Source of the DNA: Mytilus edulis
Taxonomy: Eukaryota
Length of the DNA: 64,000 nucleotides
Assembly (NCBI RefSeq): GCF_963676685.1
Contig: NC_092349.1
Coordinates: forward strand, 7,316,001-7,380,000
Direction of reading: 5' to 3'
The notes under the pieces were generated by a model that made no database searches, had not been told where the DNA came from, and saw only the letters and a list, made by a program, of their open reading frames with translations. Positions 11,510 through 61,056 of the stretch are shown here, piece by piece. The position numbers were made by a program, and so were the translations under genes. Every line of letters starts with the position of its first letter. Within the stretch, counting starts at the first letter, position 1.

Positions 11510-12993
11510 ATGGAAAGAATCAACAATACCTTGAACAGAAGGAACATTCAAATGCAGAAATCCTCTCTCCTTCAACATTAACACTTGAAGACAATGCCAT
11601 TTTATGTCACCCATTTACCATGATGTTGGCCGGACCTACAGGATCGGGAAAAACGTTTTGGATGAAAAAGCTTTTGGAGAGGGCAAGGAGTATGATAAAA
11701 CCATCGCCAGAGAGGTTAAAATGGTGTTATAAACGATGACAGTCATTGTTTACTGAAATGCAACATACGCTCAAGAACATTATTTTCGTTCAAGGGATAC
11801 CAGATGATCTTAACAACGCTTGATTTATATGCACTAAATACCCTAGTCTTGTCGTAATAGATGATCTTATGAAAGACGCAAAAAATAGTAAAGATGTGTG
11901 CGAATAATTTGTCAAGGGAAGTCATCAATGTAACTTGAGTGTAACGTGCATTGTACAGAATGCTTTTTCAAAAGGAAAGAAAAATAGACCGATGAGCATT
12001 AATAGTCAGTACATAGTTCTCTTAAAAAATCCACGTGATCAAGTAACACCTGCTGTATTTGCTAGACAGATGTATCCAAACAATTCAAAAAGATTCATAA
12101 AAAAATATATGGAAGGAGTTAAAAGACCACACGGCTACCTGTTTGTTGATCTAAAGCAGAACACATTAGAAGAAGAGAGATTAGAAATTGATATATTTAA
12201 TGATCAATACCAAAAAGTAGAGAGTTCGGATGTCATGATTGGTGGCGGTATGGCGCAGTATAAAAACGATGAAGGTAAACATATCGACCAGTTTGAAGTA
12301 AGAAGAACAAGCGAGCAGTCGCGTTTAGGAGACTATTCAGAACTTTTTGAAACTAAAGAAGAAAAAATGCCTTCATGTGACGAATGTGGATTGATGTTCG
12401 AAAACGTATCTTGTTTAATGAGGCATATTAAGAGATGGGTCTAGAAAATAACGATTAGAAGCGTAAATTCAACGAGGAATATGAGGATATTCCTTCAAAG
12501 AAATTCAAAAAAGAAATACAGATTGAAGACGGGGAGGAAGATGTTTTTAAGAAATTAGCTATATATGCAAGAGACGAGACAGAAGACCTTTTTGAAAAGA
12601 AAGTTGACAAGTACTTGAAAAATGGTATGAGTGAAACTGAAGCAAAACATAGAGCTAACCGAAAACTTCGACAAGATTAACTTGATAAGTTTATGTGGAA
12701 ATATGCAAACTTGGTACATTATATTTTACAACTTAGTGTTGGTAGATTGCATTTAAAGGTAGTAAAGTTTATTGAAAAACTGGTACAAGAAGGAACTGAA
12801 TATAAGAAAGCAAAAAAATGGCGATAAGAAAATACAAAAATGAAATTGATAATTATCTTGATGAAGTCATTGAGGAGGAAGAAGAAGGAGAGGATGGGGA
12901 GCAAGAAAAGGGTGATGATGATGATGAAGATGAAGAGGAGGGAGATGAGGAGGGTGATGGTGATGAAGAGGAGGGAGATGAGGAGGGTGATGG

Positions 12994-23641: not shown

Positions 23642-24034
23642 GTATTCTGGCCGTGAACATTTTCATCAACCAAAACATCACTGGACTTGTTGGCAAAAAT
23701 GACACACATTTAACATGCTCTTTTATCAACGATTATAAAACAAATTTTATCAATGCAGCCATCATTGCAAGGAACAAAAATGGGACTTTCTGCAAAAATG
23801 AACCGATTGCAGTATTTCAACCTGACAAAGAAGCAATGCTTCCTCTATCAGGTGATTATCTCTCAGGAAGAGTGACACTGACAAATATAACAAAAGTATC
23901 GACTACGGCGACTTTGAGATTCGATGACCTGCAATGTGAAGATGAAAAGGACTACATGTGCATTGCTTACTACATGGACAAATTTGGTGTTATAATCACA
24001 GTTGAATCAGAATCTACCAGGGTATTGGTTAAAG
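23642..24034 (+). CDS. Exon: Ig V-set domain
   Basis: tttcag| acceptor and |gtaagt donor; HLTCSF...YLSGRVTL...ATLRFDDLQCEDEKDYMC (D-x-x-x-Y-x-C). Confidence 0.9.
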
Positions 24035-27000
24035 GTAAGTTTTTTTTCTCCATCGGTATTTTCTGTGGACTTTACCTTAAAATTCTGAAGCTATTTTTTT
24101 AGCATTTAACTATTATGTTTCCCTCAGTTTTTGTTTGGTACCCCGATTTTGTTTTTTGTCCATGGATTTATGAGTTTTGAACAGCGGTATACTTCTGTTG
24201 CCTTTATTTACCTTAAAAATTTTAACAGTTGTGATTCGTATGTTGTTCGGATTGTATAAAACGATCAATAAAATTTGGATTTTTAAGAAGTAAAAAAAAA
24301 AGGATATAAGGATTGAGTCAATGACACGCATGATAGAAAAGTTTATCACATGCTTTCCATACACATGTTTAAAAAAAAAAAAAAAAACGTAGAACACTGG
24401 TTCTCCGTTAAAGCGCCCAACGTCAGCATGGTCAAAGTAAAAAATGATAAAATATAAATTGCATCAAAACCTGCTTATAAAGAACATAGAACATCTTCAT
24501 AGTGTATTCTACCCACCCTATAAATTTCAGCATGTAATATTTCACCGTTAATTTGTAATGATCGAGACAGTTTAGATGAAAGAAAATTAAAAAAAAGATA
24601 TATTTAACGTCCTTTTATTTCCTTTGACGTCGTGATTTTCAGTACTGAAATGCTTAACAATTTTTTTTTATTAATTCACGTAAACTTTTATTTCTTGTTT
24701 CTCGTTTTTCTTGTTAGTTTAAATTAAGCATAATATCCAGTCATGTCTGCATTATTATATAAGTCTTTTTTATCTCTTCAACCCAATTTAGGTGAGAAAT
24801 CTGACTTTCGGCTTTTTCCGTGTGAACAAGTATGCTAAACAATCCAGTCAGGATGTCAGATCTGTACAAAGCAGGATAAATATTGATATCGTATCATATC
24901 GTATTATCATGCTTTCAACCCTTATATGTATATAATTCGCCAATGAATCCTCCTTCTTTTCATCTTATTTACCAATCTGTGCTACCATGACTTATTACTG
25001 ATGTGGTCATACTTATACCGTAAACAAATATATAACTTTTAGACTGTTTCAATTTCAGAATGCACACGAATGGCGTATAACGTTTGAATCCCTTGCTTTA
25101 GTCTAGTACTATTTTGAAAATTTCTTTCGAAGCCGAAACTCAACTCTTGTATCTTTGATGGGTTCAATGTTTCGGAAATTTGAAAAAAACAATAAGGAGA
25201 GAGACGAGAAGTGTCTATTAGTTTTTTGTGCAGACCAAGGGGAGTATGTCCTTAAAATTGAACATTCTAATATAACAATTAGAAGATGTGGTATGATTTT
25301 AAATGAGACAACTCCAGTATACATTTAACAAATCAAGATAGTCGGTAGAGTAAATTCGTTACATAGTGTGTTAGTGACCTAATACGATATATACAGGATC
25401 AGTAAATTCCATATGAGTTTTTATTTTGGCTCAAACTCCATTATGGAATTTACTAACCCCTTATATATCGTATTACATGTAGGTCACTAACACACTATGT
25501 AACTGACAATATCTGACCAAAGTTTAAGCGAATCACTTATTTGATAATGTTTATAGTTTTTATAATACTACAATTTACAAATATAGTATATAAAATTTAT
25601 TGGTATATGTTTTCTGAACGCACAGTTGCAAATATTTCATGTAGATTTATGACCGGGAGATGAATATTTAAAAAAAAAATAAGATCTTACATGCGTTGTC
25701 GGTGATAAATAATTTAAAAAGGTTTAATATAAATACATAAAAAAAAACAAGAGACAACCATAAACGACCAAATAAACAGCTTCTTCTTATAGATCCGCTT
25801 ATGCTAGTAGAATTATGCATCCTATTCTGCTTGAATATCAGATAGTTATTTGAAATAATTCAAGATATATGAGATGGTTTACAAATTAAAAAATAAAGAC
25901 AACATCCCCTCCCCCAACCCCCACCCCTAAAAAAAATAAAGGAAAAAGGCAATCAAGTTAAGAATAGAAATAACATTATTTGGTTGAAAGGTAAAAAAAA
26001 TGAAAATTGAAAAAAGGTAAAATAAAAATAACAGAAATAAATGATTTGAAGAATAATGAAACCTTGCGTCTTCTGCATATAAAATTTATTATTGACAATA
26101 TTCTAGTAGATCATTCCCGATAAAATGTTTAACTTGCAAATTGGTAATAAACGCCACTGTTCAAATGCAATTACGATGTATATTTCATACATTCATAAGC
26201 ATCGGTGTTTTTTGCTAAACTCCCGATCTTGCACGAGTTAACGTATCATTTCGTCTCCTATTGCAGGCAAATTTAACCTTACATCCTCCTCCTGCATTGT
26301 GTCAACAATTATTTTTATAGTTTTACTCACTTTGAAAAAATAGTTTGTGACATATGTCAGAAGCAACAAAAAGATCTGCAATAGTTGGTGAAAAACAAGA
26401 TAGAAATTCCATGCGTCCGAAGCGTTTTTGTTTTATCTATCTTCATCATTTACGCCCAGCGACGAGTATTTGAAATATAAGGATGTCAAAGAAATGAATG
26501 AGTTGATGAGCTATATGACGAAAAGTACTGTGACAAAAATAGTCAAATCAGTCGATTGTAACATTGATTGGTTGAGGTGACACCTTAGGTATCTTTATAA
26601 TTCTAAAACCTATTACTGGACAATTGATTGGAATTGTAAGAATTTGCAAAATCAAAACATTGTTATAATTATTGCGTCCTCAGTTTCATACTGATGCGTG
26701 AGGACGGATGACATTGTCTTCGATTTTTTTGGGGGTATACTATTTCATTTAGTACCAAAAAATATTAAATAAATTTTAATATGCTCCCGAAACAATTGAT
26801 TGATAAGCAATGTTTCTTTCTATATTGTGTTGGACAGATAAGTAATTAAGGATAACCATCTATTTTTAATGATCAAATTTTTATTCTCTCCGATTTCAGG
26901 TATCTTTCATGTCGGTTAACTACATCGGTACTGTCTCTGAACGTTCAGCTCCACATTACTATTACCCCAGATCACAAGGAAAATATGATCAAATATATCT

Positions 27001-42000: not shown

Positions 42001-45000
42001 ACAACGGTTGCTATTTTGTAAATATAAAAACTCTACAATTTACCATAGAAACTCCCCTGCGGCTAAAACTGTGCCACTTTTACTATGAAGTTTTGTGAAA
42101 AATTATATCCCATAACGAAATATTGATATGCACAGCTATATTATCATGATTATTCAAAGGTTGGAATATAGGGCTGTGTGGCATATATCCAACATTCATA
42201 TTCCCTGAACATGCTGAACTTCTTAAAAACTACTACAAAATCGCTATACTACCCATTTCTCCACTTTTGGACCTCCTTTGAATTAAATTTTAGGCGCTTC
42301 TATTTTTTTTCATTCTGGAAAGAAGAAACCCAGATACCATATATTGGAACTAGTACGTTAATAAATCAACATATATATGAATATTATATATCTCCCCACT
42401 TGTGGCTTGTGAAATAGCCGTTTTTACAAAGTGCAACCTAAACGAAGTACAGTTTGTTATGTACTAACCAACTGTAGGTATCCGTAGTACACATTTAAGG
42501 ATTAACAAACTACTGTTCATTGCATCTGTATGTATTTCCATTCTTATAACTTAATTTTATAATATTCTTTTTTAAACAGAATAAAGTAATTTTTAAACAT
42601 TTTTTGTAGATACCGTTAGACATGTCAATATCACCAAACAGCCAAACCAAGCAGACTATGACAGAAAAACATCCAAGATTACTTTGACATGCAAAGGTGA
42701 TGGAAATCCTCAACCAACCTACAAATGGTTTAGGCTGGAGAACACAAGCAGTATACTTTCATCAACTAATCTCTATATCATTGAAGATGTAATACAAAAC
42801 AATAGTGGCGTGTATATCTGTGAAGCTTATAACACAATAGATGACGTTGAATACATAGCAAATTACTCAGTGCAGATTAATATAGGTGGGTTGATTGTGT
42901 TTTTGTAGCTTTTTGGTAATAAGGCAATATTAACAAAAACAGAATGACGCACATTTCTCATTTAACCGTCTTCTCGAATGCCTAAAGACAAATATTTGAA
43001 ATACAAGGATGAATAAGTACAGAAACGAATGAAAAGCAATACGACTAAATGGGACCTAAGCAAAAAGTAATCAAATCATTCTTGGGTAAAATGTGCCTGA
43101 GGGAGTTGAAACCTTAGTTTCCCAATAAATTATAAACGGAATCTTAAGAAATGTATGTTATAAATCATGTAAGTACAGAATCACTGACTACAGAGCTAAT
43201 GGTATCATCGGTCAAAAATTACCAACCAGCAGTGGTATGAATCCCGGGATATAAAAATGAAGATAAAACTTTCTAAATTGTATGCGTCTTTCTTGATATA
43301 CTTTCATCAGGACGATCAAAGACAAATATATAAAAGCCGACACAAGTTAAGAACTGTATGACTAAAAGGGACGATTTCACTTCAAAAATCACTTTTATTA
43401 TTGAATACATCCTTTGATTACTGTATATATACAATAAAGTATTACTGTATAAATACCATCATATTCATTAATATATCAGCCAATAAAATTGCAATTTCAC
43501 ATATATAAACAATCAACGATCATTTGCAATTATCAATAGGAACATTTCATTGTATCCGACGTCCTTAAATTGGGTTCTATGCCAAAAACTATCAATCTGT
43601 AATGATATGTTGACGAACTGTTTTCTATTCTATTTTTTAGTTGTATTTGTGGTGGTTGTGGTTTAGGGGGTGGTTTTGGATTTTACGCATTTACATCTAA
43701 TGTCATTTAAATAAATCAATTAACATGATTAAGATTTTAACCTCAGCATCACATTACCAAAATAATGCTGTTTCTCATTTTTGCTTATTGCTGGCATGAT
43801 TATAAATAACTCATTGATGCTTATATAGTACAATATGCCCAATAATATCAAATGTTTACTATGATTCTCAAACAGTCGACAAGTTGTGGTCATCAAAAGA
43901 ATCAGACTCATTAAAGAATGCAGCAGGTAAAATGTACATGTTTTATAGTTAACAACTATCAACTGAGCCAAACGAATTTTCCCAATTCGTGTTTTTAAAC
44001 CAAGGTATATAGCTAATTTAATTTAGACCTTTTTGTTTTAAAGTTTCAAACTCCTCTTATAATTGATACCTGACAAGTTGAGTCTTAGTTGAAAAAAGTT
44101 GTGAGTGTCATATTCTTTTATCTTTGATGTTTGTTTAACTCTTCAAAGCGTCCTTGCTAATCAGACAAACATCAAGCGTACCAAATGAGAATTTGGGATA
44201 TAAGAATTGTTTTTTTTATCTTAAAATTTAACATCAACCTTGAATTACAAAACAATCATTTTCATTCACTACGTTCCAATATTTGTTTCCATCTGACGAA
44301 TCAAACGTTCATTTCATTTTGCACTATATCAGAACTATCGAACGCAGTTAATTATTGATACACATTTAAGTAACGAAAATTATTTAATAAGTTTATAAAA
44401 CATATTTGATTGGTAGCAAGGTTAGTTTAATACCTCAGTTTGGAATATACCAATTGTTATCCATTTTTTATGGGTTTAAGGTTCAAAAGATGACATTTGA
44501 TAAGAGACTTTCTGTGATAAATTTTCCTAGTAGTTTGATTTATTTAAATTTAAATGCCATTGCGTTGTAGGGTTGTATTGATTATTATTTTGTTATTTTT
44601 CGCCTCTTCCTTAATAAATATGTTGCATGTGTTTTGCATGTAATTAATGACATTTGACGGAAACATTTAACTACCGTTTTAGGTAAATACGATTGTTAAT
44701 TCAGCTGTGTGATATCTAACAAATATTAACCATATTGATAACAACTTAGTAATCACACTTCAGTGAAATAAAGAAACAAAAATCCAACTTTTTCTACTAA
44801 AACAACGCATTTCGTCTTATTAACCAGCGTTATTATTCTATCCACAGGGAAGCAAATAGGGATATTCTGTTTGTTCGATGTTTGTCACTTTAAAAAACAA
44901 ATAGATGTTTAAAATGTTCGTCATTAAAATAAAAAATACCAAACTAACAGGAGGATAATTCAAATGCAGTAAAGAATACTCTTCAAAGATACCGTGCTTA

Positions 45001-48000
45001 TGATTTCATGCTGTGTTCATATCCATCATCAGTGAAGCTCGATTCAAAAAGCCTAGTCAAAATAGTATTAATTTTGATAGATCAACTGGCTAGAGACTAC
45101 CATTTATTCGTATCAAACAATTTAAATTTTTTTATTAAATTTCAAGCTATATTCAAAAATACCTGCCATAATTTCACTATAATATGCAAACTGTAATTTG
45201 TTTCAACAATATGTCTTATTTTTATTTGTAGTTCATGTAGTATACGTGATTCTCGTCATATTCGCAGTAGTCATTGGTGCATTGGTAGTAAGAAAATACT
45301 ATTATAAACCAGCAAACAAAAAGTAAATCAAATATAAGTTAAAATTTGAATTAAATTCTTCTATCATTGATGATCTTGTATTTTCATCGGAAGACATTTC
45401 TGTGAACCCTTTACAGCCATATATTGGTAGTACTGACCTGGAACATGTTTAAATAATTTAGTCGGGGATTGATACAAAACATATATAATACTTGCTTTTG
45501 CAGTACAATCGTAGCTAAGTAATTCTCTATAAATATCAAAGTATTTGGAAAAATCAAGAAACGCATAGTCACAGATTTTAATGAAATTTTGTATCAAGAC
45601 TTCTTTAAGATGTCTTATTGTGGAAAAAATAAAAAAAGTCGAAAAAAAAATCTGGTTGCCATGGAAACTGATTACCCTCATTTTGAGCCATTTTTCATTG
45701 GAAAAACATGATTTTTTTCAGATTTTCAGCACTTCATATTGCAAAATACACAAAACTTGCTACAATGAAGCTTATTCTGTTCAAATATATCACACTTTAA
45801 CTTTATAAAACTAAAGTATTAAAGATTAAAACTAATTTCTAGACATGCAGTGGCATGCATATAAAGTAGTCATTTGGCACTTTTGTCATAAAGCTAAAAA
45901 AGTGATTTTTCAGCCTTTTTTAAGAGTCTAACAACAAAAAACTGGACAACAGACCTTATTGAAACTATTTGACAATGAAGTTCCATTAGTTATCATCACA
46001 ATATTAAAAAATTAGAGAGGTGATATTTTTGGTATTTTTTTTTTTTTTTTTAATTTGAAAATTGCTCTAAATCCTGATATTTGACAAAATCTACATACAT
46101 GCAGTGATACATAACCGGTATATAACCAAACTGCATAAGAGTAATATTGAGACAAACTTTCCAAAAGAAATCTTATAAACAGCCTTTTGAGAGAAATAAA
46201 CAACACTTTTTCAGTTTTTATCATTTTATGTGGTTGCCATGGAAACATAATTTGTCTATAAATAGCCTATTTTTAGCATGAAATCAATAGAGATCATATA
46301 TCGCTTTGCATAAGATTATTAAAATCAACATGACAGTGTGAAATTATTTTAAACATGCATGAATTAAGATAATACATGTAAACAAAAAAATCAGTTCATC
46401 AACAACAACCAACTCTCAACCACACCCACCCCTCCCCCTTTTCCCGATTTTACAAAATTCGAATAGGGGCAAGAATTTTACAATATCAGCCCTGTATTGA
46501 TAATATGGAACATTCAGACCTGGATACCCTATTCTTTTACAGCATCAGACTAATGTATGTGACCTTCTGGCCAAGGACCAATTACCAATGTTGCATTATA
46601 TAACTCAGTTGTTAACAGGAATTCTGTATTAAATGTTAAGAAAGTTCGCTGTTCAGTTTCAAAATAAAGAGCTTTCTATAACACTATTCTAAATTAATAG
46701 GGATTAATTGATGAATCAACAAAAAAAATGTGCTTGTTTTCGAAGTATTATAGCCATTGAAATTTGGCAGGAAAAAGTTCTCTCTTGATTTTTCATAGCT
46801 TTAATTATCCTTGACCAGTTTAAGCTCTCAATAACAATGGCTTATAATTTTATATGTAAAAGATTTATGAAAAGAAAAATGGGGTCCATGGGCAAAATTT
46901 TTCAAGGCATTCAAATGGATAAAAGCAGAGAATTTCTAAAAAATATAACAAAAATACTAAAATATGACAAGCAAATATCCTTAACCCCTTTAGATTGATT
47001 GATTAATAATGGAAAAAAAATATAGAGTTTGATTTTTTGAGTTGCCATTTTGGAATTCTGATTAGCATCAAATTGATAATAATTATTATACAATGATCAA
47101 GACCTTGATATTAACATACACACTTAAGTTTGGTTTCAATTCTGACAGAGGTTCTTAACAGGATAAAAATAGCTCTCTTTAATATTGTGTAGAGGCTCTC
47201 ACAGAGAAATGAACTTATATAACAATATATAACACAATAAATAGAGTTAATTGTCTGAATTGATTTGCTGAGTCAAATTGCTGATGGTTTCCTCCCTGGC
47301 TGCGTCAGAACCGGATTCATCAAGCTTCAACTTTCTACATAACCGGGAAAAATAACTGGTAATTTGTTGGACTGAGAGTATTTCACTATAATGGAAACGC
47401 CTAGAATCATCTTCATTTTTTTCAAGCAACATTGCTTCAGACACACTGTATGGGTCTTCTTTTCTACCACTTTTTTGTCCTTTATTGAATTTTTCATGAA
47501 GATAATCTGTTTGATTTTTATTAAACCTCTTATTTTTTCTTTCGTCTTTCAACGCCCAACCCATGTCCAATTCAGAATCAGATGTTGATAGTTTAGTTGC
47601 AGATGGCATGATCATTAGTTGTTTATTCACACTTGATTCAGCAACCTTTTCAAGGTATTTGACTTTGGCTATATCAGAGCTGCAACTAGATTTTTGATCA
47701 AATACAAGTGTACATTTTTCTGAATATAAGTGATACGTTAATTCTTCATTGGTTGCAAATGTTTTTGTGCAACCCTCAGTTGAGCAAACCACCACATCTT
47801 CTGAATCTGTTTCAGGTATATTCATCTTCTGTTTCAGTTGATGGAAATGTATGTGACCTGAATCTTCTATCACTTGGAGTTGTATTGACTCTACTGAACT
47901 TATGTTTGAAATAAGACATTCTAGAAAGAAAAAAAAAAAAAAAACTTTCACTCACATATTCAGACTTGTATGTGCTAATTGGTGATTTAATCTAGTAAAT

Positions 48001-51000
48001 ATGCACCAATAAATTTCTTTAAAAACCTGTTTTAATCATACAATAATTCTAATATCATTTGCATATCTATAAATACTTGAATTGGATTGGTCAATTAGAA
48101 TTTTTCTCTTGGTTTACACTTCGATAAACCATGTTTCCGAAACTACTTTTGTAATCTATGCATGCGCAGTACACATTCTTGCAAGGATATTGGGATTGTC
48201 AGCAAGTTGAGATTATAAAACAATTGCATCACAGGTGTTTCTATTGTAATGCATATATAACAAAAAAAAACAAAAAAAATGCCCTAAAGCTTCAAAAATG
48301 TATAAAATTAAAATTTTATTACAATTCCGCGAAATTTCATGAAGGATTTGGTAAATTTACGTCATGGCAAAACATGATGTATGTCACACGAATGAAAATT
48401 TTCAATTCGGATAAAATCTAATTAAAATGAAGTTTTTGAGGAAGGTGATATTTCATTTTAGATTCTGTTGCATTTTTTGGACATTAATGGTTTTTAGCAA
48501 GTCAAGATGGCGGCGTACTCCTTAGTTTCGACATGCCATTGTGCTTTTGATGGTAAATTATAGTAGCTGTCAAACAAATAATTTAAATTAATAATGGTGA
48601 ATGTTTGACTGAAGAATTAAAAGGATTAAACAAATTTTTTCTAGATGTTATTGATGTGTAAACTGGGTCTCTAACTCACAAACTTACGATATAAGTCCTT
48701 TGGGACTTTTATTCAGTTTGTGAGTTAATCGTATAATAAACAATAACTTAATTTTTTTAATCTTTTTAAAAACTACATGTATACAAGTGTTAGCTTTTAG
48801 CCCAATTTTGTTCTAAAGTTCATGATGAAGCTGCTGGTCATTATTTTTTAGTAAGTTTTGAATTCAAAAGTTTAGGACAGAGGCACGATTGATAATTCTT
48901 CAACAGGTGTAATTTTGGTGTAGAGCAACTGGTGGAAATTAACTTCTATGAAAGATTTAGTCTTATATATATATAATTTAAAATTTCTTTCTTTGAATCT
49001 ATAACTCAATTGAAGAGCATTATATAGAACTAAATCTTCATCAACCTCTGCATTCACGAAAATTGTCAATTTATAACACATACCTTGGCCAATATTGTAT
49101 GCCTTCCATACTCTGATTCCATTCCTCTCAAAGGTGAAGTTTGAATAACTTGATATTGATGGAATGACACGGTCCACACTTTTAGGTTTTGCTGTCATAT
49201 TGTCTACCACTTTTATTCTGTATCTAACTTTCTTCATTGACTTGTCAATGGCCTGAAAAAAACAACAACAATATATTGATTGCTAATTTGGATAATTTTG
49301 CATTGATAGTCAATATCTTGTGACCATGAACAATTGAAAGCTTTTGGTTTTAAACTATGAAATTGCTGTCATTTACAAAAATCTAAAACAGAGTTATATT
49401 TTTAATCAAAATATTATACACTTTTTATGCCCCATTTATATGCCCCATTTAGGACCATTATGTTTTTACGTTTGTGCGTCCCTTTGTCTGTCCATTCTTT
49501 CGTTCTTTCATTCCTCCGTTTGTCCTGCTTCAAGTTAATGTTTTTGGTTACAGTTTTAGGTGAAGTTAGATTTGAGGAAGTTGAATCCAGTAGACTTAAA
49601 ACTAAAGTCTACTATATAGCTGACTATGCGGTATGGGCTTTGCTCATTGTTGTAGGCCGTACGGTGACCTATAGTTGTTAATTTCTGTGTCATTTTCTCC
49701 TGTTGTGGAGAGTTGTCTCATTGGCATTCATACCACATTTTCATTTTTATACATGTATGTTCTATGTAATAATCGTTCTAATTTTTATGCAAAATTATAA
49801 TTTTGACCCCAATTTCACAGTATAATGAACATAGAAAATGAATGGGGCATCTGTATACACATTCTTGTTTATATATATTTTAGTAGAAAGGAATCAATGA
49901 TGATTTAAAAAAGCATTTGTAATAGACTTGTTTTAATTTATAATACCATTCTCTCATACAAAAATATCATCATTAGAAAAAAAGCAGTATTGAATGTGTT
50001 GACAAAGTAATTTCAAGTAACTCACCTACATGACCTAGTCCATTAGGAATAAAATCAAAAGTATTTGGGATAAGTCTAGTTTTGAATTTTGAAATTACTT
50101 CTGATTAATGTAGAGCAGTGTAATGATGTTGCCAAATTAAATACAGTTTTTAAAAGTGTTATTCTTGTTAATATTATTTTGTTGAATTTAACACCAAATC
50201 TAATCACCTACATCACTTTAATGATGTTTTATAGGTACATAAATGTATCATACATGAAAAGAAAAGTTCTTACCTCTTTCATGTGATTGGCAGTTACAAC
50301 ATCATTTCCTTGGTTGATGTATCTTCTTATTGCTGATTTAACAGTTGCTGCTGTCCTATCACAGGGGCCTTTGCCATTCTGTGCCTCACAAAAGTTGTAG
50401 GTTTGTACACTGCCCAATTTAAAGAGTTGTGCCATCATTTCCGAGGATTTGTAACAGGCAGCATTGTCAGACCAAAGATGAAACTTTGTGCTCTGGTTAT
50501 CATCTTGGATTGATGTGATGACACCCTGTATTATGCCACTGGTAGTGTGACTATCCTGTGAGGTCTGGTTTGAAAATATATGGATGAATCCAAGAGAGTG
50601 TAGAGAATTATCAATTTTCTTAAATGCTATTGACAAATGCCATGGAATCCCCCTCTTTGCAAACCAGTCACACTGACTTTCTCTAAATTTTCTGGGCAAA
50701 AATTTCATAGCCCAATCGCAAACTATGAAGACTTCATTTTCCTTCATTTGTTCAAATGTGTCATTTTTGGCTTGGTCTTGTATTTGACACCTAACAAGAT
50801 GTTTCTTCAAGTTAATGATACTTTGTGCTGCCTGGTTGATTTTAAATCTCATATCATTTGCTGCATCCTCATGTTCTGTAGTGTTGGTTACTATTTTTGT
50901 CATCGCTGTTATGATTTCTTTCAGCTGCTCACATGACTCACAAATATGTGTATGCGAATGATTGCATTCAGATTTAAAATTTTCATCTTTGGGATCGCTT

Positions 51001-54000
51001 CCTCCATATGTAAGACAATGGTCTGCAACTTGGCATGACTGAGCAACATGGACCTGAAATTAAAACAGCAATATATAGTATATAGATATACCATGCTTTC
51101 TAAAAAAAATATCTTCCATTTACAAGTATTTGGTATTTTACTTTTTACTGTTTTTGGAATTTACATTATTAAATCTTGTTTTAATGTCCGGACATCACTC
51201 ACAAGTCAAGTTTAGTGTTGCATGGAATTTAACACCAAGAGGTTGACATTATATGCAATAATTGTAGTTTGTTATATCATTCATACAAACTTACAGGAAA
51301 GTGTCATTTTTTTTCTTATTTTATTTTTCCTTATTTTATCTAGGCTTATAGACTTCATTGACCTAGGACTATATATAGTATTGCTACTTTTTATTTAAAA
51401 AAATAATTGTATCAATACCTTCTATTTTAAATAAAGAACAGTGTTTTACTGGACCCTACCCATCACAGTGCAAAGGGCAATAACTCCTAAAACAAATAGG
51501 GTATTACAATCAAATAAAAATAAAGTGTTGAGATTTCCTTGATAGCTACAATGTAGATGTAGATGGATGGACAGATAGATGCATAACAATACACTGTTCC
51601 TACATAGATGCGCATATAATAAATTTTAAAATTGTGTTTTACTGTCAGACGAAATGAAAATAGAAAGGAAAAACTGCATGTATATATATTCAGAGTACTA
51701 AATATTCACACATACCCTAAAATCTGCCTTCATGTATCTTCTTGACTGCACCAACAGTTTGTTGATATCACTGAATTCAGTTTGAGTCATCAGATCAAGA
51801 CTGTGTAATTCTTTAGCTACAGCCTCTAGGGTAGCAAAAGCCCTCCCAACTTCAGCCACAAAATAGTCAACACCTTCAAAGCTTTGTCGGATGGTAGCTG
51901 TACATTCTGATAAAATTTTGTACATTGTACTTTCACCTGCAATAAAGAAGTATAATTAATATTCATATTCATACAGCTGAGTTTGATTTTAAAACCACAT
52001 TTTCAACAAAACAAAGTTCTGTAACTCTATGATAACACTAGAAAAAGTCATTTAAATTGAGGTGGGATCTTATAATGAATATGACTCTATCATTCAGTTA
52101 ATATACTTTTTTGTGAAAGCAATCTTGGTTTATTTTTGGAAATGGTAAAACAATTTTTTTTTTCATAAACAAAGTACTGTAACTTCATTATGAACTCTTG
52201 GACAAAAAAAGAGAAAATCATAATACATTTATGTATACCAAATAACTTTTACCTATCAGTGACTAGTGGTTTCCCCATAAACTATCCTAATCACAAATTA
52301 ATACATGTAATATAAGGAAAAGTTTTAAAATCGATAGACCTTGACTAGCATATCTAAGTCTTTCTTTTTTTAATACATCAAGGTAAGACAAATAACAAAA
52401 AAAAAAGGATTTTTTGTAACAAGTATGCAATATTATATAAGATAAAATTGAGAATGGAAATGGGGAATGTGTCAAAGAGACAACAACCCGACCATAGAAT
52501 AGACAACAGCAGAAGGAAGAGGCTACTTGAAACTTCTTGATTTTATTCTTACCTAATGGGATAATAGTGTTTTCTTCACAATATAGTTTATACTGTTGAA
52601 TGATATCTGATGAGCCCATGCATCGAATCAGGTTTGGCACATTTTGAACTGTTCCATCAGATAATTTCAATTTCTTTTCACCATATGGTAGATCTCTGAT
52701 AATATGTGGTGATGTTATGAATTCTAAGAAGCTGTCCAATTTCATTGGATCCATTTTTTGTCTGTGTGTTTCTGCTTGTGGTACAGGCAGCCCATAGCCA
52801 AATTTCTCTCCATGTTTTTTGGAAGTGTAGTATTTAAACTCTGTTAAGTCAGGGATAAGTTGCAATACTTCTTGGTAGGTCATAAACAATGAAAGCATTG
52901 ATAATAATTGTCTTCTATGCTGCCAAGATTCTGATTTCTGGTAAAACTCAGCAATTGTTGATAAGGTTGCAAGAGGTTTGATATTTTCTTCAGAAGAGAC
53001 CTTCGCAGTTGAGTTTGACAGAAAAATCTGCTGTGAGACATCACTAAAATTCTCAGGGAAAAAACATCCTATGACACAGTCAATAATATTTTGTAGTCTA
53101 TCAACATACAAGTATTGAGATTTCTTGGATAGTTCAAACCAGGACTTTGACGGAAGGCTGGAAATAGTTTTGCTGCCATTAACTTCTAAAAAGCGATTTA
53201 AATACTGAAGTGCCTCTTCTCTTTGGTAACTGGCCTGTGATTCCTGTAAAAAAAATGTTCATCATTTAGGTTCATAAAATAAATGTGACAAATTAATGGT
53301 CAAATAATACAGTATTCTTTACTCATTGTATTAATATTGATATTCAGTATCAGGTCTGATCTACAAACTCACTATGGTGAATAGTCAAGCAAAAGTCTGT
53401 AAAAACTTAAGCTTAGGTTAACAAATTAAATGATGATAAAAAATATCTGTGTTCCCTGTTGTCTACTTGTATATTATTCTTATTGCGTAGGTATATATAG
53501 AGAAATTATTCTTCTTATGAAAAGATATAACATACACGGGTAGAGCTAATTTTATATGCAGGGATCTGGAAAAAACAAAGAGAAATTTTATTTTAAGCCC
53601 AACATTCAGCAGCTATTTTGATGCATAAACAAGGATGAGTATATGAGCAACACAAAATGTTAATTTTACATAAACATAGAGGTTCTAGATACCCTTAATT
53701 TTTTTTAGGCCAACTGTGGTTTAATTTGTATTTTCAGAGTAGAAGATCTTTGTTAAGGTTTCAAAGATAATTCAAGTTGATAACCAACTTGATCAAACAC
53801 TGCAAAATTTCTAATTTATGGGCAGCAACCCAACAACAGGTTGTCTGATGTGTGGGAAAACTTCTGACATGGCAAATTGAATGTGACTAGAGGAAAAAAT
53901 TTTGGTCTTAAGTTCCTGAGACAGATGAGACGATAAATATTCATGGGACGGAGGGACGGACTGACAGACAGACAGACAAAAGTAAAAAAAATAAACCCCA

Positions 54001-57000
54001 ACTTAAAAAAAATGACAGAAATTTACAAGTTAGCTAATCATGTGTAAACTCATGTAAGTATTTAGTAAGCAGGAAGTCGTGGAGTGATGAAACTGAAAAC
54101 ACATGGTTACACATCAAACGGTATAGCTGACATATATAAACTCTAAAACCAAATTTCAAAAATCCTTCTTATGTAATTCCTGAGAAAGGAGCGATGAAAA
54201 ATATTCATAGGACAGAGGGACAGATGGCCAGACAGAGGTAAAAAAGTATACCCCCTTTATTAAAGCGGTGTTATAATGATTCAGCTTAACTGAACAATAA
54301 ATGATATCATAAAAGAGTTATAAAATTTTATACCTGTGTAGATTGCTGTTCAATTGTTTCTGAATCTGAAAAAATATTACTTCCATCATACACCATTTGA
54401 CATGTCTCATGGGTCTGTAAGTAAATCATATAAAGATTAAATTCACCACAAGGCACAAGGCAACAGTAAATCTGAGAGGATTACATTTTTTTAACTTGCA
54501 CATTCTGTTGATGGGCCTTACTGTGAATTTTAGATGAATAACAACAATGCAGTGCTGTTCTTTTGCTTTTTGTGTTTATTTGTTATAGTGTGTCTACTGA
54601 TTTTTTGTTATGGATGGATACCCTATATCCTTAGTTTTTATACGATCGCAAACAAATTTTTGGGATCTTATAATGGTATGATGTCGTCTTCTGCTTCGTT
54701 GTCTGCATCATCCTCTTCGTCTTTGTTGGTTTACGAACAATAACTTTAGTTTGTAAATGATCTCTATGAAATCTAAGAAGGTTCAATATTACAAAAGGAA
54801 AGCATTTTTGTAGTTTCTGGACAATAACTTGTGTGTAGGATAATGGATCTCTTTGACATTGTACCATGTACAAGATTCCATATCACAAAAGGAAGGCCTG
54901 GATCATGTTAGGAGGTAATTGCTCAATTCATGCAGGAATAGGGTGTAAAACAGGGCCAAAAACAAACATTTTTCGAGTTTCGAGACAATTATTTGTGTTT
55001 AAGAGTATGAATCTCTCTGAAATTGTACTTCAAGGTCCCATACTACAAAGGAAAGGCTAGTATTCAGTGTGGGGTTAATTGCTCCAAGTGGGGATTCAAT
55101 AGTTGGAAGGGGGGTCTAAATTTTTTTGGAAATTTTCAAGAAGAATCTTTAATTGTACAGTATTGCGCAATAGATTTGATAGATCTTGACATTTTTTTTG
55201 TGTCAGAAACCTATACTATGTAAAAAATTTGATCACAATCCAAATTTCACCCAACTGTTCAGGGTTTAACATCTGCGGTTGTATCGGGCTGCGCTCAGCA
55301 AAGCAATTTATTATATTATATTATAAAACTATAACATGTTAACTACAATCTGTTAAAAAAGATCAAAATGAAAAATAATTATGTTGTTGACACCAGAAAT
55401 TTGTTTCAGAGGTAATGTGCTCATGATGACTGCAATTATGAAAATAAAATATCAACATATCTATAAAACTATATGCATTCATACATGAAATCTTGATCCA
55501 ACCAATTTTTATAACAACTATCAAAATGATGAAATTCCAATATTAGACATGTTAAACAGACCGCTTTCATATCTAATATGCCATATACCAAATTTGAATT
55601 ATTCTATCATAATTGAGCATAAAATCAAATTTCCATAAAGACTATACAAGTTTTGTAGTACTTACAATTCCATCTGTTTGTGTCTCAATTGTATTTTGGC
55701 TCTCAATCAAAGTATCCATACAATGTATTGAACTGTCTTTAACCTAAAAATAGAAAGCATACTTGAATACTACAATCAGACAGACAGACAGAGACAGACA
55801 GACAGAAAGACAGAGACAGACAGACAGACAGAAATCTGACATGTCTGACAGAAGTTAAGACCCTTTTTACCAAAGATGAAGATTATGCTTCATTAAATGT
55901 GTTAAATTATCATATCTGTACTATAAATGAGATTTTTATCAGTATATGACATCTATAAAATCATTCTTACTAGACACATTCAATTTAACATATTTGTATA
56001 GATGTAGGAAGATGTGGTGTGAGTGCCATTGAGACAATCCTCCATCCAAATAACAATTTATAAAAGTAAACCATTATAAGTTAATGTACGGCCTTCAACA
56101 TGTATAGATAAAATGATTGCAAAAAAATGCTAAAATCAAATATAAACTTTTGAAAAATTAAATTTATCCTATATATTTTTGTTGCCAACTGGTCTTATTT
56201 TGGTACCTTTGATGAACATTCCTCATATGTATATATATCCTCATCTAGTTCTTTTCTTGTAAATTCTTTTCTGCAGCTAATACAGACAGCTACAAATGTA
56301 AAATTAGATAAGTCAAAATATTATAAGTAACATAATCTGCCTGGTGTATGTTTGTAGAATATATATTGTTAACTATAAAGAATATTTTATCTAAAATATT
56401 ATCTAGCATTGTATTGATATACAGTTGAGCTTAATCACTTTTCAAGTACAGACATGAATTTATTCAAAAACAATAATTTCAAACTTCAAGTTTAAATATT
56501 TTTATAAAACACCATCATCATCATCATATATATATGCAAAATGTTTTATAAATTTTGTCATCATGTACATGAAAATTAGACATCATCATCATATATATAT
56601 ATATGCAAAATGTTTGATAAATTTTGTCATCATGTACATGAAAATCAGACTTCTGTTTGAGTAGTTGTGGCAAGTGAGATTTTCATTATTAATTCACTTT
56701 GATATTTATAAATCATGTTTCTATACATGCTATAAGTTCAGTCATGTCAGTTATAATTGAATGTAACTTTAGATTTAAACAACACTACTGGCTTATTGAC
56801 CTGTTAGGTGTTTGGAAGCTATAAAAACTTTGTTAACAGATTTTTTTACTATATTTTTTCATCCATAATCTTGTCCCCGTTTACTTTTTTAATTGTAATT
56901 GAAATGTCTAATTGTCTTTCTTGTGTTACTGGGTTTCTGTACCCATTGACCTCTAACATAAGAAATAGTGATAGGGGAGTGATAGTCTTGTCATAGTGTA

Positions 57001-60000
57001 CATTATTTGTTATAGTTTTACTATAGATGCCTGATGACTTTGATATTCTAGGAGGTAAGGGAGAGAGGGTTCAAGGGGATTTGGGAAATAAATGGTCCAA
57101 CTTTATTAAAAGCAGAAATAATTTCTGCCTAAATATTATTTGAAACTAATTAACTTTCACAATAAAGAAAATAATTTATTGTGATACTTTGACTTCAGGA
57201 TGAACTTTTAAATCTACAGGCCCAGGGCTCAATTGTGGGACAAATTTAGTTAGATTATGTTGGCCTGTAGAAATGATTTTCATAGGCCCAAAAACAGTTT
57301 TACTTGCCTAGGCTGCTGGGCCTTTGTGAAGACTGCATGGATACTTAAACTAAAGAAGAATAAAAATATCTGTTTTCTTAAACTAGAACCTGTCCCCATT
57401 GAGAATATCCAAATGTAATTCTAGTCAAATTGGCACCTGGTTAAATCGGCACCTGGTTAAAACGGCCCTTAATTTAGTCATTTCGGCACCTATGTAAAAT
57501 ATATGTGGAATATGCCTATTTTTTCAATAAAATAAATGTGTTATCTGGCAATTATCGACTTTAAAATATCTTTGTGGATTTAAGTATGTTTTTTTGTTGT
57601 TGTTCAACTTAATATGTCTTCAAGGTATTGGATATTTGTAAGATACAAAGGCATAGCACCCCTTTAAAAATTGAGTTTTACAATTGGACATCATTATATC
57701 CCCCACACCAACCCATATACAAAAGTACATTGACTTACGTGTTCCTACTGGCAGAACAACACCAGTTTTTCTGAATAAAGTTGTTACATCATCAAAGTGA
57801 AGACATTTGCTTCTTTTTCTCTTCTTCTCATTGTGGCTTACAACTTCTGACGAATGGGTGTGGTCTATTTCTGGATGTGTACTAATGTGAGATGGTACCA
57901 GGCAAAGAAGTCTATTTCTTTTCTTTTCATTTAGTTTAAGAAAGTTATTGAAATGTGACGAACAAATAGAATAGGTATTAGCTAACACATTTTGTGGTAA
58001 AATACCAGCTTCAGTAAGCACAATAATAATGTCATCATATGAACATGTTTTTAAATGGAAAAAGTCTTCAGAACATCTGATAAATTCTTTGGATAACGAT
58101 CCAAACTGGCAGAAAGTCATTTTTCAATCACCCTGAATCATTATTTGTCGATCACAAAGCCTTGAATCTACTATAAAGTTAAGATGATGGTTGTTTTACA
58201 TCTTGTTGTCTGCTGACATCTTGTTTATTTGTTACCTCATAATAGGAAGAGTTTTTAACAAGGGAGATAACTTTATAGCTATGTTGGAATAAATATTGAT
58301 GTTAGCACTAGCTGTACTTTATAAACAGCTATATGCACTAAACAAAGATACTTATTTTTATTTATATTATATATTACATTAAAAATAGTACTCTAGTGCA
58401 GCATTTGAAAAGAATATTTATTTCAAATCACAAAAACGTCACCATTTTTTTTAACAAATTATATACAAATATAGGGCCAAAGCAATGCATTTAACTTTTT
58501 TATTTTAAATATCACCTCTCTATAATTTAACATACGTTGAAAACAATATCTTCAAGATTTATCCCTAAAAAATCCTACAGATCTGTTGTCCAATTTTTTT
58601 TTTAATTTGTTTTGAAAATTGCTGAAAATGTTAAATTTGAAAACTAGTGTATTTTCCCAGAGTTCCACAGGCTGGTACAGTAAAACGAAAATATGCACAG
58701 CTTTCATTTTTTTTAATTTGTGTAGAACTATAATAATCCTTTCAGGGTATTAACAGTGATAAAATTACAACTACTTCCTTGTTATGTTAAGATAGTTTAA
58801 ATTTTGGTTTTTTTTCCAGATTTTGAATCGAAAAAAAAAACAGTCTTTTTAAATATGTTGTGTTACCATGGCAACACATATTTTTTTAACATTTTTTTTT
58901 ATTTGAATATTGTTTTATGCCTATAATGCACCATTCAGCCAAGTTTTGTCTGATTTCATGACATACTATTTCCTTGTCATTTTGGTGCTTACAGAGAATG
59001 ACTCTTAAAACCATGTACAAACTAGTGTTAAACATATAAAAAGTTTATTATAAAAGTACAAAACTAGTCACTTATAATTCATTTTGGAACAAATATTTTA
59101 CTTTTTACTGACATCACATTATGATTATAATGATTGTTTTCATCACATTGGTTGTGATGAATGAATTACCGTGATTTCCCAGTGACATAAAAACCAATAA
59201 TTTCAAATAAATCTACACATTTTACTCCTCTTACATTTACGTCATACAACAACGTGTGTTATCAAGACGTTGTCTATGACAAAGCAACAAAACAACTGAG
59301 AATGCGTAGAATTAAGTTCTTTTCATTTTCTACAGTTTTTCCATTACGAAGTTCATGGTCAATGGAAAAAAATAACTGATCCAATAATTACTCACATTCG
59401 TCAATTAACGTGTTGTTTTGTTTCTTGTTATTTCGGTATTTGAATTATTGGATTAGTTATTCAATAATCAACATAAGAGAAGTATATTATGTTCGTACAT
59501 TTTCTGTACTCGTACTTTCTGTTGTGTATAAAAAGGATAAAAGTTTTGCAAAAGAGTTTTTGAAATCTTATATCAACAAAACGTTCTCCTAAATGACACA
59601 GGCATTATTCACCCTATTGAAGAAAAAACCCGTAAAGTTCACACCAGAAATGTGGTACAATACAGATATTAGGTATTTAAAGAAGTGCTTGACCTTTTTG
59701 CAATTAAAAATTAGTTACCGTTATATATTATGTTTCCCATTAAGAACTCGATATAGAAGATTTTCTGCGAAATGCATATCTGGTGCAGTAGAATTGGTAT
59801 CCTCAATGTTATTTTATAATATGATAAACCTAAGATGAATACGTTTACTATGTTTTAAAGATTACCGTTATTCCACTATTACATATAGCAATCATTTTAA
59901 TTCGGTTTAGTGTCTTACAGTCCTAAGTAATAATATGTTTGTTTTTGTATGTAGAAAAAGAACGCAGAACTGCTGCCAAAAACTGATGGACTGTTCAATG

Positions 60001-61056
60001 AAATGTAACGACGATAGCAATGTCAAGACCATTGCAAAAAGCACTATACCCTTAACCAAATTGGAATCTGGTTCAGATGATAACAAGGAAAGAGAAAATC
60101 ACAGCAGGAGCAGGTATGTGTTGATATGAACATGCATGTTGTTGACACTTTTGTATTAAAATTATAGCATAATTAAAGATGTATGTCAATTGAAATATAT
60201 TCAATTAATTTTAAAAAATGTGGCTTATTGATAAAACGAATTACCGGAAAAGATATATTGAATTACTAGATCTTCATTAACAAAAATGAAATAAGAGAAG
60301 GGGACTTGAGTTCTAAATCATGTCATTGTGTTTAATATATTTGATATATAAAAATATGAAAGTTATAAAATCATCCTTCATATAGAGAGACAAAATTTAA
60401 CAAAGGAAGTTTAGTTTCATATTTAAATATACATATGATTGATTTAACTTGTTTTATAGCTAAGTAAATCTCTCACGTGACAGTCATATAGAATTCCATT
60501 ATATTGACAACAATGTGTGAGCAAAACAAACAGACATAAATGGCCATTTGTCAACTAAGACATAGACACACATTTTCACTCAGTTTAATGTCGTACAATA
60601 TTACTGTGATATTAGTCTTACTATATTGTCGTCCTAATGTTTAGAAATAAGGAAGAAAGCCGCAGCCAAAATTTGGATGACAGCTTTATCAGCTGTCATG
60701 GTATCACTTTCGACCCCGAATATACACCCGTAATCTTCATAAACAACACTGTTAAATCAGGTGACTTGGAAGATACGTTCGATGTTGATAATACCATAAC
60801 TGAAAACAAAATCAACCGTAGAAGCAAGTATGTAGCAACACTGACATGCATGCCGTTATCGATTATGAAATTCACAAGTGATTTAAAAATCCTCAGATAC
60901 TAATTCTTTATACCTATACCATTTATACCAATCGAATGTTAAAAATTGGTTTCCTCTCTGACTTTTATGAACAGATGTGGCGTATGGAGTACCAGGATGA
61001 AATGTAGAAGATTATTTTTCTGTTGGGCAAATTTAATTAAAAAATCGTTTATATAA
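23642..61056 (+). CDS. Type I membrane Ig-superfamily receptor/cell-adhesion protein (V-C2-I-TM-cytoplasmic), about 559 aa without leader; join(23642..24034,38606..39100,42610..42885,45232..45322,59955..60113,60645..60827,60975..61056)
   Basis: All junctions are GT/AG and phase-compatible (1,1,1,2,2,2) with no internal stops. The signal-peptide exon was not identified. The tail exons are less certain than the Ig exons. Confidence 0.75.
25358..25503. mobile_element. Fold-back MITE (long inverted repeat with short spacer)
   Basis: gttacatagtgtgttagtgacctaatacgatatat..agtaaattccata versus tatggaatttact..atatatcgtatta[catgta]ggtcactaacacactatgtaac. Confidence 0.75.
27511..27932. mobile_element. 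Degenerate TIR element with a nested SINE-like copy (27684-27831)
   Basis: cactacagctcaggtggattttgcttt versus the inverted aaagcaaaatccgaccgggctgttgtg. Confidence 0.5.
31066..31597 (-). mobile_element. Retrozyme: about 350-bp tandem unit (1.5 copies) with a hammerhead ribozyme
   Basis: gttatcaaaggtaccagg at 31070 and 31412 (342-nt period; the first unit has a deletion of about 12 nt in the ribozyme core). Matches the known metazoan non-LTR retrozyme organisation. Confidence 0.85.
31443..31486 (-). ncRNA. Type I hammerhead ribozyme
   Basis: Minus strand reads GCGUCA CUGAUGA GUCU-uaugu-AGAC GAAA CUCGCG UC^ UGGCGU: helix I, conserved core, helix II, minimal helix III and a GUC cleavage triplet. 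Confidence 0.88.
31866..33052 (-). mobile_element. Penelope-like retroelement family B, RT C-terminus plus 3' region
   Basis: Minus-strand translation CPFLDFDIYITNGKLNTKIYDKRDDFSFPIVNYPFLDGDVPLSPSYGVYISQLVRFARVC. Confidence 0.85.
33359..33700. repeat. Interspersed repeat (aaaagtaaaatcacaaaaa..ctgaact family)
   Basis: Inverted, better-preserved copy at about 40190-40402. Confidence 0.6.
34106..35459. mobile_element. Non-autonomous P-superfamily-like DNA transposon (1354 bp)
   Basis: 34-bp TIR catggaagtattatattgacaggaactac(a/t)acga with 1 mismatch; 7-bp TSD CTGGAAA (34099-34105 / 35460-35466); CAT..ATG termini. Confidence 0.8.
35606..36189. mobile_element. MITE with about 56-bp TIRs (TAG...CTA termini)
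   Basis: tagaagtgggacatttaaagacgtatcgtatccgtatctgatacgttgacgtatct and its inverted copy ending at 36189. TSD not resolved. Confidence 0.75.
38606..39100 (+). CDS. Exon: Ser/Thr/Asn-rich segment plus Ig C2-type domain
   Basis: ttcag| acceptor and |gtaagt donor; FREGEIIQFTCMGNIGKPPGKFVW...SNLTVEISADHVKAKFRC. Confidence 0.9.
40577..40968 (+). mobile_element. Penelope-like family A 3' fragment
   Basis: Near-identical to 21335-21625. Inverted copies of its tail lie at 22597-22753 and 41890-42005. Confidence 0.75.
42610..42885 (+). CDS. Exon: Ig I-set/C2 domain
   Basis: tttgtag| acceptor and |gtgggt donor; KITLTCKGDGNPQPTYKWF...NNSGVYICEAYN. Confidence 0.9.
43010..43370. repeat. Old degenerate retrozyme-related copy
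   Basis: Eroded matches to the 31066-31597 unit (tgcctgaggga..accttagttt, ctgactac, accagcagtgg, ttcatcaggacg). Similar relics at about 23200-23340, 26400-26620 and 41355-41405. Confidence 0.45.
45232..45322 (+). CDS. Exon: transmembrane helix plus stop-transfer signal
   Basis: tttatttgtag| then (V)HVVYVILVIFAVVIGALVVRKYYYKPANK; donor aa|gtaaat. Confidence 0.8.
47247..58120 (-). CDS. Sola3-type DDD transposase, 1052 aa, 9 exons; complement(join(47247..47920,49084..49252,50274..51053,51716..51936,52553..53243,54334..54414,55666..55743,56207..56289,57739..58120))
   Basis: All introns GT-AG and phase-consistent; total 3159 nt with no internal stop. Motifs VLPVGT/PVCISC, DHCLTYGGSDP..C.H.H..C..C, VCDWAMKFLP..RESQCDWFAKRGIPWH, WSDNAACY, EAQNGKGPCDR; C-terminal C2H2-like finger and GWALK..RF..Q..YL helical domain. 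Confidence 0.88.
55778..55832. repeat. (GACA)n microsatellite in a transposase intron
   Basis: Direct reading. Confidence 0.9.
56510..56650. repeat. Tandem duplication of about 69 bp
   Basis: catcatcatcatatatatatgcaaaatgttt.ataaattttgtcatcatgtacatgaaaat.aga occurs twice. Confidence 0.85.
59955..61056 (+). CDS. Cytoplasmic-tail exons of the Ig receptor (59955-60113, 60645-60827, 60975-61056)
   Basis: Phase-2 symmetric exons of 159 and 183 nt with gtatgt donors. Open frame KRTQNCCQKLMDCS.../NKEESRSQNLDDSFISC..EYTPVIF.../CGVWSTRMK...SFI*. Confidence 0.62.

Follow-up and report, generated by a model that had tools for sequence, protein, structure and literature searches.

The question raised by this locus is whether a complete transposase gene lodged in an immunoglobulin (Ig)-superfamily gene of Mytilus edulis is an ordinary mobile element or a gene that its host has tamed. 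In the window, by which we mean the whole stretch of 64,000 nucleotides analyzed here, there is an intact nine-exon Sola3 transposase gene in a 13.5-kb, TTAA-ended element. Very probably, this element recently jumped into an intron of the Ig gene, and the damage at its 3′ end likely blocks its re-mobilization. An ordinary recent mobile element is more likely than a tamed host gene because near-identical copies are apparently located at other places in other mussels. The first-pass annotation of this DNA had offered either a recently active master copy unable to move itself or a domesticated gene; the former option is retained here and the latter finds no support.

The gene itself is as that annotation described it. 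In the window sequence, nine minus-strand exons splice to 1052 codons and a stop without any in-frame stop, and the introns are GT-AG in 8/8 cases. The splice model places exon 1 (amino acids 1-127) at 57739..58120, followed by exons 2 (56207..56289), 3 (55666..55743) and 4 (54334..54414), which probably encode a linker without structure, a low-confidence region of the predicted model. Exon 5 (52553..53243) encodes amino acids 209-438, exon 6 (51716..51936) carries a private G468V change seen in the protein alignment, and exon 8 (49084..49252) has both of its junctions spliced in one RNA contig, with exon 9 (47247..47920) running up to the stop. Exon 7 (50274..51053) contains, according to the alignment, the Sola3 profile and the predicted fold, the RNase H-like core and a private D689G change. 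The motifs CDWAMK, SDNA and GPCDR begin at residues 624, 707 and 741, so the full D-D-D triad already noted from these motifs is D625-D708-D744. A RefSeq M. edulis protein, P0085, is identical to the spliced product at 1052/1052 residues; this record probably annotates the very locus studied here and so supports the exon model and not the copy number.

The assignment to Sola3 made from the sequence is borne out by the RNase_H_Sola3 profile from the supplement of Muszewska et al. 2017 (PMC5751038), to which the core aligns without gaps, scoring 40.7 bits at positions 17-37 and 19.8 bits at positions 93-102, a match of two segments of 21 and 10 positions for which the emissions were read by hand and the Sola3 profile alone was scored. 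The same paper describes Sola cores as lacking a Pfam hit, and the mussel transposase contains no Pfam family. Among aligned proteins, D625 and D708 are each conserved in 44/45 and D744 in 45/45. The Sola3 group was reportedly placed in the Sola superfamily by Bao et al. in 2009; its marks are a TTAA target and 5′-GAG...CTC-3′ termini, and the type elements have long terminal inverted repeats. The available portions of PMC4455052, PMC8634313 and bioRxiv 2021.09.26.461848 yielded no definition of the group. In the predicted structure, the triad has the strand-strand-helix placement of an RNase H fold; the core is compact, D708 and D744 being separated by 35 residues. The best matches of this predicted core are SIV integrase (6rwl; Z 12.3, rmsd 2.5, 125 aligned), Mos1 (4mdb; Z 11.7, rmsd 3.1, 155 aligned) and Metnase (3k9j; Z 11.2, rmsd 3.5, 158 aligned); Foldseek with the model of the whole transposase returned nothing at E <= 0.001. 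The compact fold and the 35-residue spacing of the second and third acids are shared with retroviral integrases and Tc1/mariner cores, although the identity is 9-12%, the mussel protein has 1052 amino acids with other domains, and its target is TTAA rather than TA.

The element spans 13,486 bp (45519..59004, minus strand), with boundaries taken from comparison with sister copies. Its 5′ end is intact, with TTAA (59005-59008) and then GAGTCATTCTC, and is followed by a subterminal region (58200..59004) whose inverted likeness to the other end is in patches. The two ends match closely over ~25 nt, beyond which their likeness is confined to patches across ~500 nt, in agreement with the patchy terminal repeats noted at first. 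At the 3′ end (45515..45522), the assembly has CTAA and then G-TAATTCTC, whereas two sister ends, on C3 and C12, have TTAA-GAGTCATTCTC; two nucleotides have therefore been lost, one base has been altered, and the T of TTAA is now C, which confirms the terminal defect at 45519 noted at first. The GAG-type terminus is intact in 2/3 of the sister 3′ ends recovered. Fragments of the 3′ subterminal region (45519..46766) elsewhere are 98.3% (C3), 95% (C12), 93% (C5) and 89% (C11) identical, and the end motif with TTAA occurs at 19 places in assembly G000, with the reversed control giving 0. The introns have collected repeats, as had been suggested: besides tandem repeats, read depth together with copies elsewhere in the window marks high-copy pieces in introns 7 (49615..49751) and 2 (55998..56100), and read depth together with sister comparison marks one in intron 5 (52442..52516), which is not in the C10 and C4 sister fragments and which contigs from sequencing run X15 reach on both sides.

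Compared with what is known of Sola3, the mussel element is alike in its profile match, triad, TTAA target and GAG...CTC ends, and unlike in its eight introns, its 13.5-kb length and the short likeness of its ends, in contrast to the long inverted repeats of the type elements. Distant mussel Sola3 copies have the same peculiarities. Five intron positions (after amino acids 127, 438, 512, 772 and 828) recur with GT or AG and in the same phase in four copies ~45-55% identical, each of which has at least three of the five. A 17.3-kb element on C8, as well as 3/6 of the non-coding relatives fetched, has TTAA-GAG-type ends on both sides that are alike for only ~25 nt. Because many introns and short end likeness recur in these copies, they are family traits. 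The window copy is a member of the known Sola3 group and not, as had been suggested, an undescribed system. The available portion of a survey of bivalves (PMC10294476) reports Sola3 as 64 elements or signatures and none among its curated full-length families.

Evidence for mobility comes from other animals. A 1759-nt contig from run X15 matches 57427-59008, from exon 1 to the element end, and its last 162 letters depart from the window directly after TTAA in a query extended to 59800 (one contig, one run). This copy is ~99% identical to the window copy and has the same introns with a different right flank; across eight X15 contigs, 68/7426 bases (0.92%) differ. Read depth, which is not a copy number, is 0.48-1.29 over the flank and 7.7-13.1 over the element in X15, and 11.8-17.3 and 45.5-85.4, respectively, in X2. 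The first-pass annotation had named a polymorphic insertion with the same intronic content as the sign of an ordinary young element; the X15 copy agrees with this, but no empty site was observed, and the paralogous intron in G000 supplied none, the left flank being unique and the right flank matching only a dispersed repeat from base 87.

In other Mytilus assemblies, the annotation places copies with 91-98% identity on several chromosomes or scaffolds (placements from the 15 listed members of a 24-member protein cluster, nine being unlisted). Contigs and scaffolds were told apart by the sizes given in the protein annotation. The M. galloprovincialis RefSeq copies (98.3, 97.8 and 96.0%) are each on a contig of their own (133.1, 81.3 and 97.1 Mb, respectively), unlike the nearest Ig homologue, which is on one of 103.0 Mb. 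In three scaffold-level data sets, for M. coruscus and, in older versions, for M. galloprovincialis and M. edulis, 0/7 copy scaffolds match in length any scaffold on which a listed member of the Ig family occurs. The proposed synteny check thus separates the copies from the listed Ig members, but the M. trossulus copy is unplaced since no M. trossulus Ig homologue was among 32 matches; a long conserved exon, sought for this placement in the 200 kb beside the window, was not found either. Within G000, broken fragments of the family (73-98% identical) occur on C1, C3, C4, C5, C6, C7, C10, C11 and C12, and the window copy is the only whole copy found and has the only catalytic exon above 48% full-length identity. 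The expectation of dispersed relatives is therefore borne out as to their existence and not as to their number, the copies being few. A scan of metagenome contigs for the element 5′ end gave 0 matches and has no bearing either way.

One alternative is that this is a mobile but host-maintained gene: its copies relocate, yet selection on the mussels preserves one or two of them whole and spliced for a host function. We consider this unlikely, although whole frames, dN/dS below one, a spliced contig and a sole whole copy in G000 also fit selection at the level of the host. For three species, RefSeq includes whole frames of 1052 amino acids at 95.7-98.3% identity, with a 957-amino-acid frame at 92.4% in M. 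coruscus, and 14 sequencing runs of several studies, labelled as DNA or without a label, contain 76-88% of the words of 49000-53300, from which no frequency follows as the runs were picked as holders. Comparison with six dead sister fragments gives a dN/dS of 0.29-0.65, a lineage measure that does not separate selection by host from selection on the element. One RNA contig in run X16 (depth 4.4), whose source may be another copy, is spliced at 2/8 junctions, those of exon 8, but raw RNA reads of X24 reach a depth of only 0-0.9 in the bins dominated by exons, with 6% of that run read, so the suggested test of the eight junctions gave a mixed answer. Against host maintenance, a second Sola3 family, with copies of 1048-1081 amino acids on three M. 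galloprovincialis contigs, behaves likewise, which suggests the ordinary life of such elements, and 2 of the 11 private amino-acid changes in the window copy are at conserved sites (D689 is D in 40/45 aligned proteins, and G468 is G in 26/33 without a gap). Under drift, a frame that has taken up 11 private changes would stay unbroken with a probability of 0.06-0.44, and the open frame agrees with drift at a divergence of ~1%. On the neutrality proposed as a mark of an ordinary element, the results point two ways: dN/dS against the dead sisters is below one, but the X15 exonic differences (7 non-synonymous, 3 synonymous; 10 sites from 40/528 listed rows) are not distinguishable from neutral (P = 0.45).

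An equally improbable variant combines host-selected Sola3 genes that change address with a piggyBac-like insertion, TTAA being carried on the element ends, as the origin of the CTAA/TTAA asymmetry. piggyBac has a TTAA target, a D-D-D triad and CCC/GGG-type ends, and its insertion at CTAA or TTAG leaves unequal flanks. The mussel element shares the target and the triad, and its CTAA/TTAA flanks resemble the unequal piggyBac flanks, an analogy that may serve as a lead only; its Sola3 ends differ and it has no piggyBac Pfam match. To our knowledge, no transposition mechanism has been demonstrated for the Sola superfamily.

The element is in an intron of the Ig-superfamily gene on the opposite strand, between a transmembrane exon (45233..45323, plus strand) and the first cytoplasmic exon (59956..60113, plus strand), which upholds the antisense nesting first reported. 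This position, with a paralogue of the host gene ~70 kb away, one damaged end and the sole whole copy in G000, would suit a domesticated recombinase or DNA-binding gene that became fixed at the single Ig locus and took on a RAG-like role, a reading that we regard as very unlikely. The X15 copy has a different flank, the copies are on other chromosomes or scaffolds than the listed Ig members, and the element retains one end in perfect form as well as 0.8-1.2 kb of subterminal DNA. RAG1 and Transib have a D-D-E triad with a large insertion domain between the second D and the final E, a 5-bp duplication and CAC ends. The likeness to RAG1, Transib and ProtoRAG is in the RNase H-type fold and the Ig-superfamily locus, whereas the mussel protein has a D-D-D triad with no insertion domain and folds most like integrase and mariner, and the element has a TTAA target and GAG ends. 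RAG1, Transib and piggyBac are absent among the 50 VIA fold matches listed for the predicted core, an absence that excludes nothing. The host gene is a single spliced gene of the type I membrane class, and neither a gene-segment array nor a RAG2 partner was seen. The RAG analogy drawn earlier, like domestication, is not supported.

That the damaged end is an assembly error in a fully competent autonomous element is likewise a very slight probability: the junction is known from the assembly sequence, and elsewhere the 3′ region matches the intact-ended C3 fragment at 98.3% identity, but three separate changes fall within 13 bases (Poisson P ~0.0015, for a window picked after inspection) and outside any homopolymer, and the sister end on C5 shows damage at these very bases. 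On the preferred reading, the clustered changes were probably left by the repair of a transposase cut or by an insertion that was imperfect, and the damage likely stops this copy from moving again. It may still supply the enzyme that moves intact-ended relatives in trans, to which we give somewhat less than an even chance; otherwise it is newly dead.

For the preferred reading, a young mobile element, we propose that the family persists at very low copy number, with perhaps one or two whole copies per genome, and spreads by cut-and-paste into TTAA. Each jump would need a working enzyme, so that frames would stay open and dN/dS would remain below one along the lineage, and the introns would gather repeats inherited by all later copies. 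After its insertion, the window copy would have begun to drift, acquiring its private changes, D689G and G468V included.

As an ordinary element, the window copy is of modest importance. Great length, many introns and a low copy number characterize the Sola3 elements of mussels; for this reason annotation lists them as 'uncharacterized protein', and curation based on single open reading frames may miss them. In mussels, a single copy with splicing, an intact frame and dN/dS below one is not proof of domestication. In the literature searched, where most subscription papers were missing, we found no transposition assay for Sola3; with copies at different places between animals, this family is a natural candidate for the first transposition test.

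Splice reconstruction of the Sola3 transposase gene agrees with the first-pass annotation, giving nine minus-strand exons from 58120 to 47247, all eight introns bordered by GT-AG, that join into 1052 codons plus a stop and encode a full catalytic triad (D625/D708/D744, conserved in 44, 44 and 45 of 45 aligned relatives, respectively). RefSeq model P0085 is 100% identical over all 1052 residues, probably because it is the annotation of this very locus. A second RefSeq model, P0083 (isoform X2), lacks residues 439-448 through an alternative acceptor in exon 6 (51936-51907, minus strand), and two short frames of 2 and 7 codons (58240-58232 and 58219-58196, minus strand) precede the start and could damp translation. 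A Pfam search of the transposase matched no family. Two ungapped core segments fit the published RNase_H_Sola3 profile (40.7 and 19.8 bits), the comparison covering these segments and the Sola3 profile alone. The core is predicted to form a compact RNase H fold (pLDDT 87.2), its top fold matches being SIV integrase (Z 12.3), Mos1 (11.7) and Metnase (11.2); Hermes scores 7.9.

We consider it very probable that this gene belongs to a low-copy Sola3 family that still transposes, or did so until recently, between TTAA sites in Mytilus, and that the window copy sits in a host intron, has lost an end and is drifting. At least half of the sequence words of 49000-53300 occur in 15 of the 24 sequencing runs listed, and four runs were compared with 44500-59800. 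In run X15, eight contigs show 68 differences in 7426 bases (0.59-0.68% in exon-rich pieces, 0.57 and 1.27% in intron-only pieces); one of 1759 nt follows exon 1 through base 59008 and continues with 162 letters unlike the window, so that X15 appears, on this one contig, to carry the same element at a different site. Flank coverage in X15 and X2 is far below element coverage, although depth is to be read with caution. Of the 24 members of the transposase's protein-database cluster, the 15 listed include a whole 1052-aa copy from M. galloprovincialis (98.3%) and another from M. trossulus (95.7%), copies of 1025 aa (97.8%) and 957 aa (M. coruscus, 92.4%), and fragments. M. galloprovincialis has its three RefSeq copies on contigs of 133.1, 81.3 and 97.1 Mb, none of them the 103.0-Mb contig that carries the nearest Ig homologue, P0125; across three scaffold-level sets, the seven copy-bearing scaffolds all differ in length from every scaffold with a listed Ig-family member, a placement that is indirect and leaves out the M. 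trossulus copy. Whole copies of a second Sola3 family are scattered in the same way. As to the genome-wide copy number that the first-pass annotation proposed checking, the 1.37-Gb source genome, where counts are lower bounds, shows no second close copy of the catalytic exon: the best full-length of at least 148 matches reach 46-48% identity, and DNA-level matches (65-85%) cover partial stretches only. As to expression, one X16 RNA contig, at depth 4.4, runs spliced from exon 7 through exon 8 into exon 9; raw X24 RNA reads, from the 6% of the run read, barely reach the exons.

Same-family fragments are scattered through the source genome. Sequence comparison locates 3′ ends on C3 (98.3% over 1250 nt), C12, C5 and C11, exon 5 on C11 (96%), C10 (89%) and C4, exon 9 on C11 (90%) and C1, and, on C6, exon 1 together with the 5′ end (78%); sister coding fragments have stops in five of six and gaps in all six. 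The exact terminal motif with TTAA occurs in at least 19 places, and the reversed control in none. The patchy ends and repeat-laden introns that the first-pass annotation had set against the intact frame are traits of the family. Introns after residues 127, 438, 512, 772 and 828 recur in the same phase in four copies (C1, C6, C8 and C14; about 45-55% identity), the exon 4/exon 5 boundary not being placeable by this method. A complete multi-exon element of another family (17.3 kb, C8:46773175-46790531, with stops in two exons) has both TTAA-GAG ends intact and similar over about 25 nt only, and three of six non-coding relatives fetched (6.5-8.3 kb) have both such ends with likewise short similarity, the second end of the others not being inside the 10 kb fetched. 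Since distant copies share both, introns and short, unequal ends are old family features and not signs of decay. The repeat at 52442-52516 is absent from the C10 and C4 sisters, but X15 contigs run up to it from either side, so that it must have come into the lineage a single time and been passed on. Elsewhere in the genome, L016-L018 and L025-L027 are Sola3-related (30-36% identity) with long open frames lacking several of these introns, and the non-coding L114, L115 and L118, 6.5-8.3 kb long, have ends of the Sola3 type, match no transposase and belong to a dispersed family (83-96%).

The dN/dS ratios proposed as a check, 0.29-0.65 against six dead sister fragments and 0.20 against a distant family, show past purifying selection on the lineage. 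Only a working transposase makes new copies, so such selection is expected along an element lineage; the pattern is also expected under host selection, as it would be for a mobile gene maintained by the host, a reading we hold to be unlikely. For the window copy itself, the ten exonic differences from X15 among the 40 of 528 rows listed, of which 7 are non-synonymous and 3 synonymous, cannot be told from neutral change (P = 0.45). The window copy differs from both P0091 and P0094 at 13 sites, 11 of them private once P0092 and P0001 are considered, including D689G (D in 40/45) and G468V (G in 26/33), and X15 has the family residue at five. A frame with 11 private changes survives drift with a chance of 0.06-0.44, depending on the assumed indel rate; its intactness calls for youth, not for domestication. 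A fixed domesticate with a RAG-like role, an analogy that the first-pass annotation drew from the Ig-receptor locus, is very improbable; X15 appears, on one contig, to carry its copy at another site, and the insertion domain of RAG1 and Transib is absent, D708 and D744 being 35 residues apart.

The window spans C6:7316001-7380000 of the source genome, which protein matches assign to the blue mussel, Mytilus edulis. The 13,486-bp element is indeed antisense to an Ig-superfamily host gene that carries the annotation IGSF11-like (P0124), and occupies the intron that follows the transmembrane exon (45233-45323) and precedes the first cytoplasmic exon (59956-60113). A V-type Ig exon at 23644-24036 shares only 72.5% identity with the first P0124 domain, against 98-100% between the remaining P0124 exons and the window, and no closer match to that domain lies within 100 kb either side; the cytoplasmic exon 60647-60882, which P0124 has, is without a counterpart in the M. 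galloprovincialis homologue P0125. A paralogous Ig-superfamily gene lies downstream of the window at a distance of about 70 kb (C6:7440001-7460000; L132-L133), and broken frames at 7305-12444 resemble, from reading translations, a Polinton/Maverick-type remnant with DNA polymerase B-like pieces (7305-9795) and a packaging ATPase-like frame (11908-12444).

The element's 5′ end (59004) is intact, TTAA-GAGTCATTCTC. Comparison with intact sister ends on C3 and C12 confirms the damage reported at 45519, where two nucleotides are missing, one base is altered and the flank is CTAA. These three changes within 13 bases, against 1.7% elsewhere (P about 0.0015, for a region picked post hoc), are unlikely to have arisen by chance; the C5 sister end shows damage to these bases too, and an assembly error is very unlikely. 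We infer either repair following a transposase cut or imperfect insertion. One possible form of the latter would be insertion into a CTAA site, the element itself bringing the TTAA, as piggyBac can do. Since older relatives too have altered TTAA flanks, the C may also have arisen by ordinary mutation.

The account we favour retains from the first-pass annotation a recently active copy with a lost end. The Sola3 family would move, now or until lately, among TTAA sites at low copy number in Mytilus; the window copy would have inserted into a host intron, where splicing would remove the antisense insertion, and then lost one end. It would now be drifting, perhaps still a source of enzyme in trans.
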